Below are positions 3,097-63,794 of a DNA stretch of 64,000 bases, piece by piece (positions within the stretch are counted from its first letter, which is position 1; each line of letters begins with the position of its first letter). Position numbers and translations under genes: made by a program. This DNA is from an uncultured Armatimonadetes bacterium (lineage in GTDB: Bacteria; Armatimonadota; Hebobacteria; Hebobacterales; Hebobacteraceae), in the NCBI GenBank assembly GCA_963716175.1, contig OY970296.1, positions 1,312,001 through 1,376,000 of the forward strand. Reading direction: 5' to 3'. Under the pieces are notes generated by a model. It had not been told where the DNA came from. It saw only the letters and a program-made list of their open reading frames with translations, and ran no database searches.

Positions 3097-4440
3097 TCAC
3101 CGGAGTGTGAGTGTCCCGTACTGGGCCGCGGTGGCCCAGATGGCGTAGGCGTTCAGGGCCAGCATGAGCAGGGAGATAAGAGTAAGGCCGAGCCTGGCCC
3201 AGCGCGCGTCGCCGAACAGCGCACTCAGGCCGCGGGCGGAGGCCAGGCCCAGCAAGGGCAGCACGCAGACCAGATAGCGTCCGCCGCTGGTGCCCATGCG
3301 CCAGTCCACTGTCAGCACGTTGCGGACGAGCCCGAGCAGCACCACCAGCGCGGTGAAGAGCCAGAGCAGGAGGGACCAAGATTCAGCGCCGGATATCGCC
3401 TCTCTGCTCCGGTGCAGGAAGGCGACGGCGAGCCCCGCGGCTGAGAGCAGGGCCAGGGCCAGCAGGAAGCGGGTGATCGCCGGGAGGTCGGCGTGGGCAC
3501 CGATGACATCGGCGGGCACGAAGGTGAACAGGAAGATCAGCCTGGGCAGCGCGCCCAGCAGCGCGGCCCGCGGGGCCTCCGGCAGGCCCCGCAAAGGGTA
3601 GAGATAGGGATAGACGAGAGGCGAGCCGTAGATCCACCACTTGCGCAGAAACCACCAGCCGGAGAGGGCGAAGGTGAGCAGGAGCGCAACGCCGATCCAC
3701 TGCAGCGCCTGCCCGAGCGACCTGGGGCTGGCCTCCAGGGCCAGCGCCAGCAGTGACACCACCACCAGGGCCAGCGCGGTCTCCTTGACATTGAGGGCCA
3801 CTCCCAGGAGCAGCCCCAGCACCGCCCAGTCCCGCCAGGTGACGCGAAAGGTCACCATGCGCGCCCACTGCCAGGCGGTGGCGGCGAACATGAGGATGAG
3901 CAGGGAATCGTTGTTGATCACCCCGGTGATGTAGGTGAACATGGGGGTGAAGGCGGTGAGGGCCACGCCGCCGAGCCAGAGCTGGGGGCGGCCGGGGAAG
4001 ACCATGCGCGCCGTCCACCACACGAAAAGCAGGGCGGCGGCGCCGAAGATCACCGAGAGCAGACGCACCGGCCGCACTGCCCCCGGCACCTGGAAGCTCT
4101 GTCGGGCTCCCTCCTGGTCCAGGAAGGTGACGGTCTGCTGGGGGAGGTGGGCGAAGGCGCGCCAGACCAGGGCGGCCAGGGCGTAGTAGAGCGGCGGCTG
4201 GTGCGCTTCATGCGTGCGGGCCGCGCCGGGCCGGTACACGTCGTCTTCCTCCCCGTGGGTGAGCGCAGGGAGCCGGCCATCGAGGGCGAGCGACTCGACG
4301 TAGATGATGTGTCCCGGCTCATCCGGGCCCCACTGCAGGCGGGTGGCGAAGGACTGGAGGGTAGCCAGCAGGCAGTAGCCGACGAGAATCGCGATCAGAC
4401 CAACGTGGGCGAGCCGGTAGCTGGGGTAGCTGGCAGTCAC
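3097..4440 (-). CDS. GT-C fold membrane glycosyltransferase (ArnT/PMT-like)
   Basis: PDEPGH, HQPPLYY, NNDSL and GRYL motifs; multiple TM helices; GTG start at 4440 inferred. Confidence 0.75.
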   Translation of the reverse strand: MTASYPSYRLAHVGLIAILVGYCLLATLQSFATRLQWGPDEPGHIIYVESLALDGRLPALTHGEEDDVYRPGAARTHEAHQPPLYYALAALVWRAFAHLPQQTVTFLDQEGARQSFQVPGAVRPVRLLSVIFGAAALLFVWWTARMVFPGRPQLWLGGVALTAFTPMFTYITGVINNDSLLILMFAATAWQWARMVTFRVTWRDWAVLGLLLGVALNVKETALALVVVSLLALALEASPRSLGQALQWIGVALLLTFALSGWWFLRKWWIYGSPLVYPYLYPLRGLPEAPRAALLGALPRLIFLFTFVPADVIGAHADLPAITRFLLALALLSAAGLAVAFLHRSREAISGAESWSLLLWLFTALVVLLGLVRNVLTVDWRMGTSGGRYLVCVLPLLGLASARGLSALFGDARWARLGLTLISLLMLALNAYAIWATAAQYGTLTLR

Positions 4441-4525
4441 AGCGCGGCCATTCTCGCGGGCTGACGGGGATTCCTCCCAGCAGAGACCGGCAGGGCTGCT
4501 GCGCGGGCTGCCGAAAGACAAGACC

Positions 4526-5149
4526 ATGCCTCTGGTGCATGTCTTCGATCTGGGAAACGTGCTGGTAGCCTTCCATGAGCGGTTAGTATACCAGCGGCTG
4601 CGGCAGCGCTGCCGGCCGGGTGCGAGGGTGGAGGCCGTGTTCGACGCGCACCTGGGGGCGGCCGGGGTTGACATCGGCGGCGATTTCGACCGCTTGCACC
4701 CGCTGCTGGTGCGAGACCTGGGCCTGAGCATGACCCTGGAGGAGCTGCGGCTGGCCTGGAACGACATCTTCTCTCCCATGCCGGAGATGCTGGAGGTGGT
4801 GCGGGAGAGCCCGCGCCCCCGCTACCTGCTCTCGACGACCAATGCTCCCCACGTCGTGTGGCTGCGCCAGCATTTCAGTTATGTCTTCGAGCTGTTCGAC
4901 CACTGCTTCCTCACCTGCGAGATCGGGCTGCGGAAGCCGGACCCGGCCCTTTTCCGGCACGTGGAATCCGTCACCGGCCAGCCGCCGGAGCGACACCTCC
5001 TGATAGATGATATGCCCCAGAACGTGGCGGGCGCTCGCGCCGCGGGCTGGCAGGCGATCCGATTCGTGGGCGTGGAGGACTGCCGACAGCGACTGGCCGC
5101 GCTGGCCGCCGGCCACAGGGAGGGAAGTGCTCGCCTGCCGGTGAAGTGA
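4526..5149 (+). CDS. HAD-superfamily phosphatase
   Basis: FDLGNVL motif I, LST, KPDP, IDD motifs. Confidence 0.9.
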   Translation: MPLVHVFDLGNVLVAFHERLVYQRLRQRCRPGARVEAVFDAHLGAAGVDIGGDFDRLHPLLVRDLGLSMTLEELRLAWNDIFSPMPEMLEVVRESPRPRYLLSTTNAPHVVWLRQHFSYVFELFDHCFLTCEIGLRKPDPALFRHVESVTGQPPERHLLIDDMPQNVAGARAAGWQAIRFVGVEDCRQRLAALAAGHREGSARLPVK

Positions 5150-5352
5150 GACGCGCCTCTTCGGCAGGTCGTCCGTCGCTGCGCTCGTGGCAAAGCCACG
5201 TCACCATGGGGGGAGGACCCTGCGAGGCGGGATGGGAAACCGACCAGACCTAGCCTCTGGAGTGACACCCGGGAGCGGCCGGTACTTGCCAGGCAGGCAG
5301 CGGCCGTACTAACATAGGAGAGACGAGCAAGGAATTGGTATGGAGGTGCGAG

Positions 5353-6252
5353 ATGGCTGAAGGGGCTAGCGAGATGCGTTCCACCTGGCGCAATAAGGTT
5401 GGCCTCGCCGAGATGCTCAAAGGCGGGGTGATCATGGATGTCACCACCGCGGAGCAGGCCAAGATCGCGGAGGAGGCGGGCGCGGTGGCGGTGATGGCGC
5501 TGGAGCGGGTGCCTGCCGACATTCGCGCCCAGGGCGGGGTAGCGCGCATGGCCGATCCCGTGAAGGTCAAGGAGATCATGGCCGCGGTCACCATCCCGGC
5601 GATGGCCAAGGCGCGCATCGGCCACTTCGCGGAGGCCCAGGTGCTGGAGGCGCTGGGCGTGGATTTCGTGGACGAGAGCGAGGTGCTGACTCCCGCGGAC
5701 GAGCAGTTCCACATTGACAAGCACCTGTTCAGGGTGCCCTTCGTGTGCGGCTGCCGGAACCTCGGGGAGGCGCTGCGGCGGATCGGGGAAGGGGCCGCGA
5801 TGATCCGGACCAAGGGGGAGGCCGGGAGCGGCAACATTGTGGAGGCGGTGCGCCACATGCGCATGGTGCAATCCGAGATCCGCCGTCTCACCACGCTGCG
5901 CTCGGATGAGCTGATGACTGCGGCAAAGGAGCTGGGCGCGCCCTATGAGCTGGTGTGCGAGGTGGCGCGCTTGGGCAAGCTGCCGGTGCCGAACTTCGCC
6001 GCCGGCGGCATCGCCACCCCGGCCGACGCCTCTCTGGTGATGCAGTTGGGGGCAGAGGCCGTCTTCGTGGGCTCGGGGATCTTCAAGTCGAACGACCCGG
6101 CGGCGCGGGCGAAGGCGATCGTGGAGGCCACCACCTACTACGACAAGCCGGAGGTGGTGGCCCGGGTTTCGGCCGGGATCGGGGAGGCCATGCCGGGGTT
6201 GGATATAGCCAAGCTGGATGAGAAGGAGCTGCTCCAGACGCGAGGTTGGTGA
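5353..6252 (+). CDS. pdxS: Pyridoxal 5'-phosphate synthase lyase subunit
   Basis: [27 protein letters not shown], ends RGW; GGAGG RBS at 5342. Confidence 0.98.
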
Positions 6253-6338
6253 GCGCAATCGGGACGAACATGCCCCTGCCACCGAGGGGCCGCGAAATCG
6301 CCGGCGGGCATGCCCGCCTTTGATGGCTTCTGACAAGC

Positions 6339-6545
6339 ATGGCAGACCGGAGGAACGACATGGTCGGAAGAGGCATTGCAGTCGCTGGCATCTGGGTTGG
6401 AGTGGGGATCGCGATCGGGCTGACCGGCGCCGCGCACCCCAATCTGCCGGGTTGGGTCTACAAATGGCTGCTGGTGAGCGCGGTGCTGGTGACCTGGCCC
6501 ATCGTGTTGCCGCTGATGGGGCCGTGGTCGTGGGGGAAGGATTAG
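6339..6545 (+). CDS. Small two-TM membrane protein
   Basis: 68-aa ORF with two hydrophobic segments between pdxS and pdxT; alternative ATG at 6360 has a GGAGG RBS. Confidence 0.5.
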   Translation: MADRRNDMVGRGIAVAGIWVGVGIAIGLTGAAHPNLPGWVYKWLLVSAVLVTWPIVLPLMGPWSWGKD

Positions 6546-6618
6546 GCAACGGCCCCACCCCTGCTGCGCAGGGGTAGGCCACAAGAGTGGGGTCGCAAGG
6601 GAAGGGTTGAAGTAGGAG

Positions 6619-7197
6619 GTGGCATTGAAGATAGGAGTGCTGGCCCTGCAGGGGGCGTATCGGGAGCATCTGCAGACACTGCGCAGACTCGGGGTGGAGG
6701 CGATGGGGGTGCGGACGCCGGAGGAGGTGGCGGCCTCGCAGGCGCTGATCATACCCGGGGGGGAGAGCACCACCATCGGGAAGCTGATGGTGCGCTACCG
6801 CCTGCTGGAGCCGATTCAGGCGCACGCGCGATCAGGGAGGCCTCTGCTGGGCACCTGCGCGGGCATGATCCTGATGGCAAAGCGGATCGAGGCGGCGGCC
6901 CAGGATCAGCCCCGGCTGGGGGTGATGGACATCACCGTGGCGCGGAACGCCTTCGGGCGCCAGGTGGACAGTTTCGAGGCCGACCTGGCTTTTGACGGGG
7001 TCAACAGCGGGCCGGTGCGGGCGGTGTTCATCCGGGCGCCGGTGATCCGGGCGGTGGGCGAGGGGGTACAGGTGCTGGCAGCCCACGAGGGGAAGATCGT
7101 GGCGGCGCGGCAGGGAAATCTGCTGGCCCTGGCTTTCCACCCGGAGCTGACCGAAGACGCGAGGATACATCGGTACTTTCTCTCGCTGGTGGGGTAG
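6619..7197 (+). CDS. pdxT: PLP synthase glutaminase subunit
   Basis: GVLALQG, PGGEST, GTCAG, FHPEL motifs. Confidence 0.98.
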   Translation: MALKIGVLALQGAYREHLQTLRRLGVEAMGVRTPEEVAASQALIIPGGESTTIGKLMVRYRLLEPIQAHARSGRPLLGTCAGMILMAKRIEAAAQDQPRLGVMDITVARNAFGRQVDSFEADLAFDGVNSGPVRAVFIRAPVIRAVGEGVQVLAAHEGKIVAARQGNLLALAFHPELTEDARIHRYFLSLVG

Positions 7198-60741: not shown

Positions 60742-60806
60742 GGGCCAGTATAGGCAGGGCGGGTTTGGGGTGTCAAGGCGAGGTCGAGGCCGGTCGTGGG
60801 TCAGTT

Positions 60807-61630
60807 TCAGAGGAGCAGCCTCACAATTTCTTCGACAGACCAGACGTGATCGGTGATTCCGGCGGCCACGGCAGGCGTGGTTTTCAGCGTCTGGTGAACC
60901 CTGGCGAAGTTGTAGTACATGAAGTGCAGGGAGACAGCGCAGAAGTGATTCTCCAGCTTCTTTGAGAAGGCGTTGGTCAGCCGGGTGAAGCTCCGCAGGC
61001 CCATCCGAACGGTCAGATTCCGGCGCTCTATGTAGCTGGTAGAGATGTGCTTGGGATCGGGCCTGCCCATGATCGGCGTTCTCTCGGCGGCTATGCGGAC
61101 GGGCGGGCTGTATCGCTTCCCGCCTTCGGCGTCCTGGCCGTACAGCTTGACCAGCATGGCATAGTCTATGTCGGCCCCGAAAACCTCTTCAACGGCGTTC
61201 AGGTAGACCTTCAGGCCGTCCGTGGTTAGCTGCACGCGGTTGACCAAGCGGGATTCCAGGTCGGTGATGAGGTCATAGGCGGCCGTCGCGTCCCCTCCCC
61301 GACCTGCCAGCAGATCATCAGCTTGCTGTCTGCGTCCATTGCCGTCCACGTCCACACGTCACCAACGCCGAACTCGCCGCGCCTATGCTCAGGGACATTC
61401 TTCTCCTTGGCCCCGGCGAATGACCAAATCTCGTCGCACTGGACGCGCTTGGAGGCCAGTCCCTGGAGGGTCTGGTTCCGGTACTCCCAACAGGCGTGAC
61501 CAAGCTCCACAAGAAGCTTGGTCACGGTGTTCTTCGCCGCCCCGGTTATGCGAACCGTGGAGCGGATCGAGTTTCCCTCTACCAGACAGCGGACAACGGC
61601 TGCTCGGCGCTCAGGCGACAGCTTGTTCAT
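60807..61630 (-). CDS. IS1-family DDE transposase (frameshift in G run at ~61295)
   Basis: HTH GNSIRSTVRITG, QCDEIWSF, TTDG, STSYIERRN, RLTNAFSKK, TPAVAAG. Confidence 0.88.
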
Positions 61631-61637
61631 GCTGACC

Positions 61638-61666
61638 AGTATACATGACTGGTCTAGCTTTGTCAA
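61638..61666 (-). promoter_or_regulatory. Near-consensus promoter of a probably leaderless transposase mRNA, with operator palindrome
   Basis: TTGACA - 17 bp - TATACT - 7 nt - ATG; GACCAGT-N7-ACTGGTC overlaps the -10. Confidence 0.75.
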
Positions 61667-61866
61667 GCATTCTGGTCATATTCTTTCGGTGGTTTCTCCG
61701 ATGGGGTGGTCTGCGACTCTTGGGCAGCCTCTTTACCAAGCTCTCGCGCACGCTCCAGAATCTCTTCCTTGGTGTACAATCGTGGGCCGTCAGGTAGTGT
61801 TGCGGCGCATCGCAGGCAACCACGCTGTAGCCAGCCGGAGTGCACCGCTCCTTGCCTATGCTTCAT
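61663..61866 (-). CDS. Small hypothetical passenger protein (67 aa)
   Basis: ATG with GGAGGG RBS overlapping the end of the upstream cargo gene; YTKEEILERARELG. Confidence 0.4.
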   Translation of the reverse strand: MKHRQGAVHSGWLQRGCLRCAATLPDGPRLYTKEEILERARELGKEAAQESQTTPSEKPPKEYDQNA

Positions 61867-63124
61867 CGCTTCCCTCCAAGTACCTCGCGCTGAACGCGGG
61901 GTTGAACTTCGCATCAAAGTAGTGCTTGCGCTTGATCCATATGAATCCATCGCCTTTGCTGATTACGGCCACATCAGTCGGGCCGCCTACTGTCTCTGCA
62001 TCCTGAGATGCCCTGCGTTTCAGGGCAGTCAGGTTAACCAAGGCCTCTGCCAAGAGGGCTAACTCCTCCTTTGGCATCGAGGCCACAACGCTCAGTAGCG
62101 GTGATATGAACATCTCCCTTCTGATTGTACCTAGCTTCTCTTCGAGTTTTTGCCTCAGCTCCTCGCCTATGGAGTGTGCAACGGCCGCTGCCTCAGGTTG
62201 GTTCGTATTCTGGAACTGATTCCCCTTCTCCTCAAAGAATGCACCCAGGAAGGACGCCAACACACCCCTGTATACCGGGTCCATTCCCTCAACGAACGTA
62301 GCCATTACGTCAGTCTGCGCGAAAGGCTCTATGTGGCCCAGCACCTCATCCGAGATGTCCACGCTTGCGCGCTGCCTCACCTTGTGCACCCCTAGCGCTG
62401 AGCAAGAGAACTCGAAGTTCCTCAGGCGGGGAAATACGTCTTTCGTCCCGAATCCCGTTATGGCAAAACCCGTCTCGCCGCCGAACTGCACATCATGGAG
62501 GAAATGGTCAAGGACTAGGTTTCTGACTCTCCCTTTCGTCTCGGCATTGATCGAAAACAATTCGCTAAGCCTCTCCAGGACAGGCCCCAACTCTGGGTTG
62601 ATCGCGTTGGCAATCGAATCCCTCACCTCGGGGAGAGCTACATCGGCGATGACTGGAGACCCGCTTACGCCCTGCTCGTATTCCGCCAGCACCTCCAGAA
62701 GCGCCGCCTGCGCCTCCGCTTCACTGGGATGCCCCCATGCAGATAGCTGCCGCAGCTTCTCAAAGGTCCCTTCGGTTAGTCTCCTTATGCATTCGCGTCC
62801 GAGAGTCACCAGGGACAGCCGCCGCGCCTCATCGCTAAAGACCGAATCATTAGTCCTCAGGAATTCCTCAAAACACTCTGCGTAGCCCTCAAGATGGTCG
62901 CACTTCTGCTGTTTGCGGATACGACGGAACTCCTTGATCGCCGTCTCGACAGGCACTCCCATCACTTCGGCAGAACTGTAAACCATGATACCGACTGGTT
63001 GGTGTTTGCTGAGAGCAAACAGTTTGTTGACAGTGTTGAATATCTTCAGACCGGCCGTCGTAACTGCGCTGTCAGCGGCGAGCGCCACCGCTTGCTTGGT
63101 GAGAACAGCGACCTCGGATGTCAC
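61856..63124 (-). CDS. Passenger protein, putative Ntn-hydrolase (proteasome beta-like) with large insertion
   Basis: MTSEVAV...ALAADSAVT, NKLF, C-terminal TVGGPTDVAVISK. Confidence 0.65.
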   Translation of the reverse strand: MTSEVAVLTKQAVALAADSAVTTAGLKIFNTVNKLFALSKHQPVGIMVYSSAEVMGVPVETAIKEFRRIRKQQKCDHLEGYAECFEEFLRTNDSVFSDEARRLSLVTLGRECIRRLTEGTFEKLRQLSAWGHPSEAEAQAALLEVLAEYEQGVSGSPVIADVALPEVRDSIANAINPELGPVLERLSELFSINAETKGRVRNLVLDHFLHDVQFGGETGFAITGFGTKDVFPRLRNFEFSCSALGVHKVRQRASVDISDEVLGHIEPFAQTDVMATFVEGMDPVYRGVLASFLGAFFEEKGNQFQNTNQPEAAAVAHSIGEELRQKLEEKLGTIRREMFISPLLSVVASMPKEELALLAEALVNLTALKRRASQDAETVGGPTDVAVISKGDGFIWIKRKHYFDAKFNPAFSARYLEGSDEA

Positions 63125-63369
63125 TTGTGCTTACTCCACCGCGCGATAGCGGCGAGCCTAGCAATCTCCGACCGTTCGTCGGCCGATAGCTTCTGCGCTC
63201 GTGCCTTCCCGCCTTTCAGCCCTCCGAGACGACCGAGGACAACTGCCGCGGGATTCTTGCCGCGCTTCCAGTCCTTCGGCGCTTCGCCCATCGCCTCCCT
63301 CACCACCCGGAACGCGATCTCATTCACATCCTCGGGGCCTTGCTTTCCCCTGCTTGACCGTTTAGGCAT
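63121..63369 (-). CDS. Small basic protein with GGLKGGKARA motif
   Basis: KNPAAVVLGRLGGLKGGKARAQKLS..ERSEIA..AA.ARW; 4-bp overlap with the cargo gene. Confidence 0.8.
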   Translation of the reverse strand: MPKRSSRGKQGPEDVNEIAFRVVREAMGEAPKDWKRGKNPAAVVLGRLGGLKGGKARAQKLSADERSEIARLAAIARWSKHK

Positions 63370-63442
63370 AGCTCAGGATACCACACGGCGCGCCGGAAGT
63401 CCAGTACTTGTCACAGGAACCTTCCAAGCATGTGCAAAAGCG

Positions 63443-63480
63443 ATCTCGGCAGACGAAGCGAAAGCTTCGTCTGCCGAGAT
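63443..63480. terminator. Perfect 17-bp hairpin inside the transposon end
   Basis: ATCTCGGCAGACGAAGC-GAAA-GCTTCGTCTGCCGAGAT followed by T-rich sequence; terminator function is inferred. Confidence 0.5.
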
Positions 63481-63794
63481 GCAATTTCCTTGTTTTTCCG
63501 CGAAGACCCTGTTCGATTTTCTAAGCATTGAGATTCCCACGCCCGACGACCATCCTCAAACTGACCCACTACCTCGAGGCCGGTCGTGGCGACAGACATG
63601 TCGCTCCTGGCGAGGGTGCGGCTTTCTTGACTTTTCCGGGGTAGGGGGCTAGAATCGCGATGTTCGTCTCGCACTGCTGAGAGGCGAGTCCGGCATTGCA
63701 CTGCAAGCCGGCGAGACGGCCTGTCCGCGACTGCGGGCGGGCCGTTCGCGCGAGCAGGGCCGCCCCTCTGGCGCGGCCCCCGGAAAGGATACGC

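Follow-up and report, generated by a model that had tools for sequence, protein, structure and literature searches.

The closest described counterparts of the protein studied here come from Fuchs, Alva and Lupas (2021; PMC8665760), who report 22 new proteasome homologues and who state that they saw no hint of a function in the genomic context. Their PMI type (Proteasome homolog with Multiple Insertions) means that the fold resemblance discussed below has already been described. In their account, PMI-3 and PMI-4 alone combine a long insertion behind H1/H2 with another between H3/H4, and these insertions should prevent ring assembly; PMI-4 is abundant (Table 1 there: 501 sequences at 90% identity, with HDY66466.1 as representative) and ranges over many bacterial phyla, Euryarchaeota and phages. 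Connectase, also treated there, is a monomeric and highly specific relative with an insertion between strands S3 and S4; this archaeal monomeric proteasome homologue (PMC7980362) is a protein ligase whose substrate is a methyltransferase subunit. Here we analyse a 64,000-nucleotide (nt) stretch of contig OY970296.1 from an uncultured Armatimonadetes bacterium, referred to as the window, in which positions 60792-63573 form a transposon of IS1 type, 2,782 bp long by repeat finding and alignment of copies. It carries the gene for a proteasome-like protein of 422 amino acids (aa), followed by a small open reading frame (ORF).

Overall, this is a real element with a described protein family in a new mobile context and with a new candidate partner. 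The most cautious description of the cargo is a module of two genes that moves horizontally as a self-contained unit, with a proteasome-type Thr hydrolase at its centre. Our best explanation is a passenger transposon whose PMI-type protease pair acts as a conflict module, to which we assign a probability of about 0.5. No later publications on PMI function were found, judged by their titles, and the literature searched had none joining N-terminal nucleophile (Ntn) hydrolases, anti-phage defence and the proteasome.

The proteasome-like protein and its small downstream ORF

61856..63124, minus strand: gene of the 422-aa proteasome-like Ntn protein (Thr nucleophile; two helical insertions), matching phrog_5990
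61663..61866, minus strand: 67-aa ORF, with its ATG at 61866; its first 11 nt lie within the end of the protease gene

The 422-aa gene begins with GTG and overlaps the stop of an upstream 82-aa gene by 4 nt; with the 11-nt overlap at its other end, this bears out the coupled 82-aa/422-aa/67-aa operon proposed in an earlier reading made from the letters alone (the sequence-only reading). The protein matched no Pfam, NCBIfam or PADLOC model, and it matches phrog_5990, a profile annotated as of unknown function, from end to end (E = 1.6e-87). Its AlphaFold2 model (predicted local distance difference test score, pLDDT, 85.9; predicted template-modelling score, pTM, 0.82) contains a beta core interrupted by helices at residues 98-209 and 283-349. 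When the PDB was searched with Foldseek, all 33 matches listed were proteasome subunits or Anbu, with probabilities of 0.99-1.00, E-values of 1e-4 to 2e-3 and target-normalised TM scores of 0.37-0.57. The top matches in a PDB sequence-profile search were cullin repeats, which fell on the helical insertion at E about 1e-3 and were set aside as a likely effect of helical bias.

The motifs singled out in the sequence-only reading (M-T, AADS, Lys34 and ETVGGPTDVAVI) are all present. Among 40 aligned members, D18, S19 and K34 are invariant (D18 and K34 again in a second alignment), a GFG motif and the C-terminal block ETVGGPxDVAVISKGDGF show little or no variation, and T2 reaches at least 90% conservation, the members that lack it being those with a cut N-terminus. 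The start M/V-T is found in 221 of 237 near-full-length members, and most of the exceptions look like truncated gene calls. Counted after removal of Met, the residues become Thr1, Asp17 and Lys33, which is the spacing of the proteasome triad; G45, nearly invariant in the 40 sequences and 11 residues past the Lys, is a candidate counterpart of the oxyanion-hole Gly47. From the sequence we infer that Met removal would expose the nucleophilic Thr and that the protein would be catalytic. The suggestion that the cargo is an Ntn hydrolase thus holds up, with proteasome and Anbu as the only Foldseek matches listed for the AlphaFold2 model and with Thr2, Asp18 and Lys34 conserved.

With proteasome beta, HslV and Anbu the cargo has in common the Ntn fold, the N-terminal Thr, the Asp/Lys spacing and the C-terminal GG-x-x-D-V-A-V-I strand. 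It differs from them in being about twice as long, in the two helical insertions that interrupt its core (about 110 residues in one, about 65 in the other), in having no significant sequence match to them (best E = 0.16) and in having no AAA+ partner nearby. Agreement with PMI-4 as described in PMC8665760 takes in several features: the modelled beta-sheet core, Thr1/Asp17/Lys33, the absence of a propeptide and both insertions are alike, and so are the abundance and the range, including Firmicutes, Cyanobacteria and phages, which fit PMI-4 and not PMI-3. The 422-aa protein thus fits the PMI type and is probably PMI-4, preferred over PMI-3 by description and distribution only. Set against the same account of PMI-4, the differences are the conserved downstream ORF of about 60 aa and the transposon, satellite or prophage context.

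The family is large: at least 3,987 proteins matched in a word-indexed search, and clusters formed at 50% identity number 4,856 with E <= 1e-3. It spans many bacterial phyla as well as methanogen or ANME archaea. Of 301 genomes in the window's phylum, 4 encode a full-length homologue, and the other 14 genomes from the window's family all lack one. Three further genomes of the phylum (G145, G182 and G253) have ORFs of 283-356 aa that match only the C-terminal 60-90 profile positions (E 1e-13 to 1e-16) and may encode other proteasome-like homologues.

Downstream of the protease gene, a small ORF recurs. We examined 81 protease loci, from 80 genomes and the window, and in 44 of them BLAST clustered a same-strand ORF with a median length of 62 aa that starts within a few bases of the protease stop. 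A hidden Markov model (HMM) built from those 44 finds the small ORF in 63 of the 81 loci at E < 1e-3, including 19 of the 37 outside the training set, where the E-values are relative to a small candidate set. The conserved motif reads roughly Y-x-S-x-x-E-F-E-K-K-Y-F-P-K, then D-x-x-x-L-G-x-x-L-A-K-E-S-L. GenBank records of a Streptococcus satellite and a Providencia phage likewise have small coding sequences annotated at this position, that of the phage containing AEWEQKFVEPRK. The window's 67-aa ORF has a P...LG..A.ES pattern in common with its nearest relatives (loci L010 and L011), and by our own reading the ORF is in register with the family.

Complex modelling of a typical pair (locus L017) gave a score of 0.62 for the protease with its small ORF, compared with 0.00 for the best of three controls. 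Among 80 solved complexes 58 attained that mark, as did 2 of 110 mismatched pairs; these counts hold only roughly here, as we used our own alignments. The L017 runs had at least 65% of contacts in common, with a partner pLDDT of at least 62, and in the model the small-protein motif (residues 14-30) touches residues 124-142 and 191-193, in the first helical insertion, which in window numbering correspond to residues of about 121-139 and 186-190. The prediction supports binding of the small ORF product to this first insertion of the protease and makes the ORF of about 60 aa a new candidate partner. The sequence-only reading had cast both small ORFs of the operon as partners: the 67-aa ORF, at the conserved partner position, remains a candidate for that role, and the 82-aa KGGKARA protein belongs to the transposon backbone.

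The transposon, its ends and its backbone genes

60784..60791: left copy of the target-site duplication, TCGAGGCC; single copy in the empty-site contigs
60792..60810, plus strand: left terminal inverted repeat, GGTCGTGGGTCAGTTTCAG, from repeat finding and alignment of copies and relatives
60807..61355, minus strand: transposase, C-terminal portion with the DDE region in a frame of 182 aa; 91% identity to an intact sister over the latter's residues 129-289
61226..61666, minus strand: N-terminal part of the transposase (helix-turn-helix, HTH, region, 146-aa frame), likely start ATG 61630 (MNKLS...) by relatives
61638..61666, minus strand: sigma-70-like promoter TTGACA-17-TATACT (11/12), directly upstream of the transposase start
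63121..63369, minus strand: 82-aa basic KGGKARA protein, a transposon backbone gene adjoining the right end and reading inward
63443..63480: perfect hairpin (17-bp stem, 4-nt loop) in the interval that separates the KGGKARA gene from the right end
63555..63573, minus strand: right terminal inverted repeat, reverse complement GGTAGTGGGTCAGTTTGAG, from repeat finding, relatives and metagenome contigs
63574..63581: right copy of the target-site duplication, TCGAGGCC, from the sequence and the empty-site contigs
63582..63589: host sequence GGTCGTGG, equal to the 8 nt with which the left repeat begins; native to the target and present in the empty site

Contigs from four public metagenome runs were compared with the window, and the empty site was recovered in two of the four. 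Among the sequencing runs listed for the locus, none is of RNA. In one contig of 1,812 nt (run X1) and one contig from a different study (run X7), position 60783 is joined directly to 63574, skipping 2,790 nt; on its two flanks the X1 contig departs from the window at 14 of 984 letters and at 2 of 427. In further contigs the right end is present, and divergence sets in exactly after 63573. The empty-site and diverging contigs together indicate closely related strains that lack the element, and show its end adjoining other sequences. No empty site was found in the genomes of relatives, where the left flank is present in 11 of 20 (12 of 21 with the window's own) and the intergenic region is unconserved at 77-79% identity. 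The element is a real, recently mobile insertion, and its ends, its duplication and the empty-site contigs confirm the delimited IS1-type passenger transposon that had been proposed.

Of the 18-bp terminal inverted repeats and 8-bp duplication given in the sequence-only reading, the duplication stands and the repeats need correction: the inverted arms measure 19 nt, with 17 of 19 positions complementary (60792-60810 against 63555-63573). The exact direct repeat is 16 nt long, TCGAGGCCGGTCGTGG, at 60784-60799 and 63574-63589, and its second half is the start of the left arm. As TCGAGGCCGGTCGTGG is already present once in the empty site, the duplicated target measures 8 bp, as is usual, and the host bases at the following 8 positions happen to match the start of the element. 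By our own calculation such an 8-nt match of host GGTCGTGG to the element start has a chance of about 1.5e-5 per site. When the three left ends of the window's genome are aligned, similarity begins exactly at 60792; at position 4 of the left end the window has C, most relatives have A and a 233-bp fragment copy has G. A 16-bp target duplication, or an element start at 60800, was ruled out by the alignment of the three copies from 60792 and by the 8-bp duplications of relatives. A target preference for end-like sequence is not supported: the right flanks of the other nine delimited elements are unlike the end, and none of them has the 8-nt match.

Near-consensus promoter-like sites lie at 60747-60776 (minus strand) and 63627-63655 (plus strand), for two divergent host genes, SIS-domain-like to the left and lipoprotein/PpiC-like to the right. 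As both sites are just outside the element, the insertion fell between them and cut neither. The GC fraction is 0.55-0.62 inside the element and 0.69-0.755 in the flanks, a difference of about 10 points. The hairpin at 63443-63480 may insulate the element from outside transcription; at the equivalent place, a sister copy in the same genome has a perfect 13-bp palindrome.

The transposase of the window is split between two frames. The break falls near 61290-61296, with a length difference of 1 nt from the single 290-aa frame of the sister, and one related metagenome contig has an additional T behind 61294. Programmed frameshifting as in classical IS1 was considered and rejected, as by our own reading there is no slippery run at the break and relatives are single-frame; the break reads as a mutation, and the window copy is probably not autonomous. 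This split had gone unnoted in the sequence-only reading, whose separately promoted DDE transposase is otherwise matched by the promoter-like site TTGACA-17-TATACT; in our reading of the sister copy, identical promoter hexamers stand at the same place. The intact sister transposase scores 32.1 bits with PF03400 (cut-off 24.1), and its best NCBIfam match is the IS1 family model NF033558 at 63 bits, under the curated cut-off of 100; the window's fragments alone reach 16.3 and 35 bits with the Pfam and NCBIfam IS1 models. On these scores we call the transposase a distant member of the IS1 family, of single-ORF type, distant because the PF03400 cut-off is passed and the NCBIfam score lies below 100.

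Like the IS1 family, the element has a DDE transposase with an N-terminal HTH, short ends starting GGT, an 8-bp duplication and passenger genes. It differs from that family in its NCBIfam score under the cut-off and in a conserved second backbone gene, KGGKARA, at the right end. The single-ORF ISMhu11 group is said to carry passenger genes, under a name that we did not find in the searchable literature. We know of no description of a KGGKARA-type gene for IS1 elements, from a search that was not exhaustive.

By tblastn, a KGGKARA homologue is present in 14 of 14 related elements whatever their cargo, always adjoining the right end, and only 4 of the 81 protease loci have it ahead of the protease gene; on these counts it is part of the transposon and not a partner of the cargo. 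The protein matches no Pfam or NCBIfam family. In the ESM Atlas it resembles unnamed small basic clusters or clusters automatically named 'histone H1', and the KGGKARA motif also opens a 340-aa P63C protein (L116) and the profile phrog_2384. Our guess is that it binds DNA and aids or regulates transposition. The window's own genome has a third KGGKARA-type gene (L009 4402-4695, G000:C1:2225440-2225679), 69% identical and with no transposase match nearby; its neighbours are a 306-aa protein and, about 1.3 kb off and by our own ORF reading, ParB-like and DNA methylase-like proteins, and this may be another mobile region. In a Pyrinomonadaceae metagenome-assembled genome (MAG; L077 4615-6508), the KGGKARA gene, protease gene and small ORF are ordered as in the window with no transposase match within 5 kb, as in a decayed element or a gene link outside the transposon.

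Related elements and their variable slot

The transposase was found in 13 of the 301 genomes of the phylum, that of the window included. From these hits and two loci of the protein search, 14 related elements were examined. Ten, including the window's (WIN), are delimited and measure 2,469-3,736 bp, with ends GGTAGTGGGTCAGTTTGA or variants of it. Target duplications of 8 bp are perfect in nine (WIN, L011, L054, L116, L117, L118, L119, L121 and L122) and match at 7 of 8 positions in L123; in L007, L124, L125 and L126 one end is degenerate, not found or beyond the contig. The window's genome, a single contig of 4.56 Mb, holds a second copy and a 233-bp left-end fragment. The second copy (L007, 3474 to about 6810; G000:C1 about 2417473-2420810) encodes the intact 290-aa transposase; its right end is degenerate, and a target duplication was looked for and not found. 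The solitary fragment (L003/L008, G000:C1:1112689-1112921) consists of the left end and the transposase C-terminus and is 85% identical to the window's. In a Capsulimonadaceae MAG contig (L011, element at 3781-6635 in reversed coordinates), the same protease cargo accompanies a transposase gene inverted relative to the window, with ends and 8-bp duplication intact.

The order of the backbone is left end, transposase, variable slot, KGGKARA gene, right end, and the slot holds the following.

WIN, L011, L054: the protease pair
L118, L119, L123: a protein of about 225 aa and an RmrA-type HTH-peptidase (RosmerTA antitoxin models; E 2.6e-61, 1.6e-92 and 1.4e-57)
L007: a HigB-like toxin, a PD-Lambda-2_B-like HTH-peptidase (E 1.9e-39) and a 154-aa protein
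L117, L121: ClpP-like SDH proteases, each followed by a small ORF
L116, L126: P63C proteins
L122: a HARE-HTH protein
L125: an AAA_16/STAND NTPase
L126: a GNAT protein beside a 74-aa ORF

A survey of cargo between the same ends, as the sequence-only reading had proposed, thus yields varied contents, including RosmerTA, PD-Lambda-2_B-like/HigB, SDH, STAND and P63C, across the 14 elements examined, ten of which have both ends delimited. In the two other elements with the protease pair, the proteases are 36% and 48% identical to that of the window. In L054 the protease is only 36% identical and the transposase 54%, from which it follows that two distant protease lineages occupy one slot. RosmerTA and PD-Lambda-2 (PADLOC RmrA and PD-Lambda-2_B) occupy this same slot and have no sequence or domain relation to the protease pair, so that the link is positional only. 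The small ORFs that follow and overlap the SDH protease genes (L117 1377-1655, 92 aa; L121 1454-1645, 63 aa) give these cargoes the same layout as the proteasome-like cargo.

Possible functions of the protease pair

Under our best explanation, an element of a distant single-ORF branch of IS1 inserted with an 8-bp duplication between divergent host promoters, and the frameshifted copy probably moves only if another copy supplies transposase. With Thr directly after the initiator Met, removal of Met would expose the nucleophile, and the two helical insertions form a cap. In typical members the small protein encoded by the translationally coupled ORF of about 60 aa is predicted to dock with its EFEKKYFP-like motif on the first helical insertion, and most likely it would gate or target a substrate-specific Thr protease. 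The pair would then constitute a self-contained conflict module (abortive-infection-type defence or addiction) spreading on transposons, phage satellites and prophages. A conflict function, whether defence or addiction and with pure addiction included, we take to have roughly one chance in two; it is suggested by the company in the slot, the patchy distribution, the satellite and prophage locations and the toxin-antitoxin-like layout.

A search of 50,697 phage records gave homologues in 13, and seven of these records are Streptococcus satellite phages. The protease gene is the second-to-last of the Javan103 satellite; a Providencia lambdoid phage has it with the antiterminator/methylase genes on one side and the lysis genes on the other. 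Such positions at the ends of satellites and in phages are usual sites of accessory genes. These positions, and the fact that homologues form phrog_5990, would also suit a cargo that serves the mobile element or phage itself, in counter-defence or superinfection exclusion, for instance by processing a phage or host protein. We regard this as quite improbable: 13 phage records stand against thousands of cellular clusters, and such a role is hard to picture inside a 2.8-kb transposon with no other phage genes.

To tally the surroundings in the 80 genomes, we took on each side the closest ORF that measures 100-650 aa and lies no more than 1.5 kb away, which gave 127 neighbours. Several observations weigh against a conflict module of the kind we favour. 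The neighbours are heterogeneous and mostly housekeeping, the commonest Pfam families listed being HTH_3 and HTH_31 at 3 of 127 each. The defence-neighbourhood enrichment that the sequence-only reading had put up for checking was not seen, in a crude test of the 25 commonest families among these 127 neighbours with no control set. PADLOC-DB 2.0.0, likewise proposed as a check, returned no family at E <= 1 for the 422-aa, 82-aa and 95-aa frames, and thus no match for the three operon proteins; the 67-aa ORF has no Pfam, NCBIfam or PADLOC match. Against the partner-ORF profile this ORF reaches E = 0.19, which is not significant, and the complex model was made for the L017 pair and not for that of the window. 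The predicted interface lies on the helical insertion and not at the active site, leaving inhibition, targeting and cleavage not told apart. In the PDB sequence-profile search, the archaeal proteasome beta subunit appears only at E = 0.16, on the C-terminal strand, and homology to the proteasome accordingly rests on fold and motifs. Beside these points, a few neighbours match restriction-modification, E1-E2 or candidate defence models, in a count made with no control set, and the sole PADLOC match of the typical member L017 is a weak one to Cas8b (E = 7e-4).

The housekeeping neighbours and the lack of a PADLOC match are what would be expected of the main rival, a specialised cellular protease or ligase comparable to connectase that sits in the transposon by chance and whose small protein is a substrate, adaptor or chaperone. 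The small ORF fits this too, with its one short, strongly conserved linear motif resembling a recognition sequence. So does the account of PMC8665760 that the insertions of PMI-3 and PMI-4 should prevent rings and that connectase is monomeric and highly specific. Connectase resembles the cargo in adding helices to a proteasome-like core, and with its high specificity for a short conserved motif of a partner protein it may serve as a working model for the protease and its small ORF; it differs in the place of its insertion (S3/S4), and ligase activity is not implied for the cargo. The distribution speaks for something other than a resident cellular enzyme: the gene is extremely patchy, in 4 of the 301 phylum genomes, three transposons carry it in two widely divergent protease lineages (with 36% and 48% identity to the window's protein), it occurs in phage satellites and at prophage accessory positions, and every annotated sister cargo is of a defence, toxin-antitoxin or regulator kind. 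On balance we consider a cellular enzyme unlikely, while treating it as a serious competitor.

A pure addiction module of toxin-antitoxin type with no anti-phage role, with the protease as putative toxin and a small, labile protein as the antidote to it, would account for a two-gene, translationally coupled, self-contained unit scattered in unrelated contexts; sister elements have HigB and a GNAT beside a small ORF, and the predicted binding of the small protein would suit an antidote. The gene order is less fitting, with the small gene downstream of the large one, and domain searches found no DNA-binding domain in the small protein. Many toxin-antitoxin modules also defend against phages, which makes the two readings hard to separate. 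Taken strictly, we think addiction alone rather improbable.

The conflict module that we favour can be taken a step further. In a bolder version, which we offer as tentative and well short of even odds, the protease and a cap-binding micro-protein would form a new two-component immune or addiction system in which the protease is released or retargeted on infection, and KGGKARA transposons would be dedicated IS1-derived shuttles for RosmerTA, PD-Lambda-2-like, SDH protease, STAND NTPase and PMI cargoes.

For the most abundant of the 22 new proteasome homologue families, PMI-4, to which the cargo probably belongs, the locus and its relatives provide a context: a conserved, co-translated micro-protein that is a predicted cap binder, repeated capture by transposons that in other copies use their slot for recognised anti-phage and toxin-antitoxin systems, and accessory positions in satellites and a lambdoid phage. 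With this context, an orphan enzyme family becomes a testable two-gene system. As a separate point, the transposons illustrate neatly how a small DDE element exchanges conflict modules in nature: their ends are clean, their duplications measure 8 bp, a small basic protein is conserved among them, and metagenomes reveal a polymorphic insertion.

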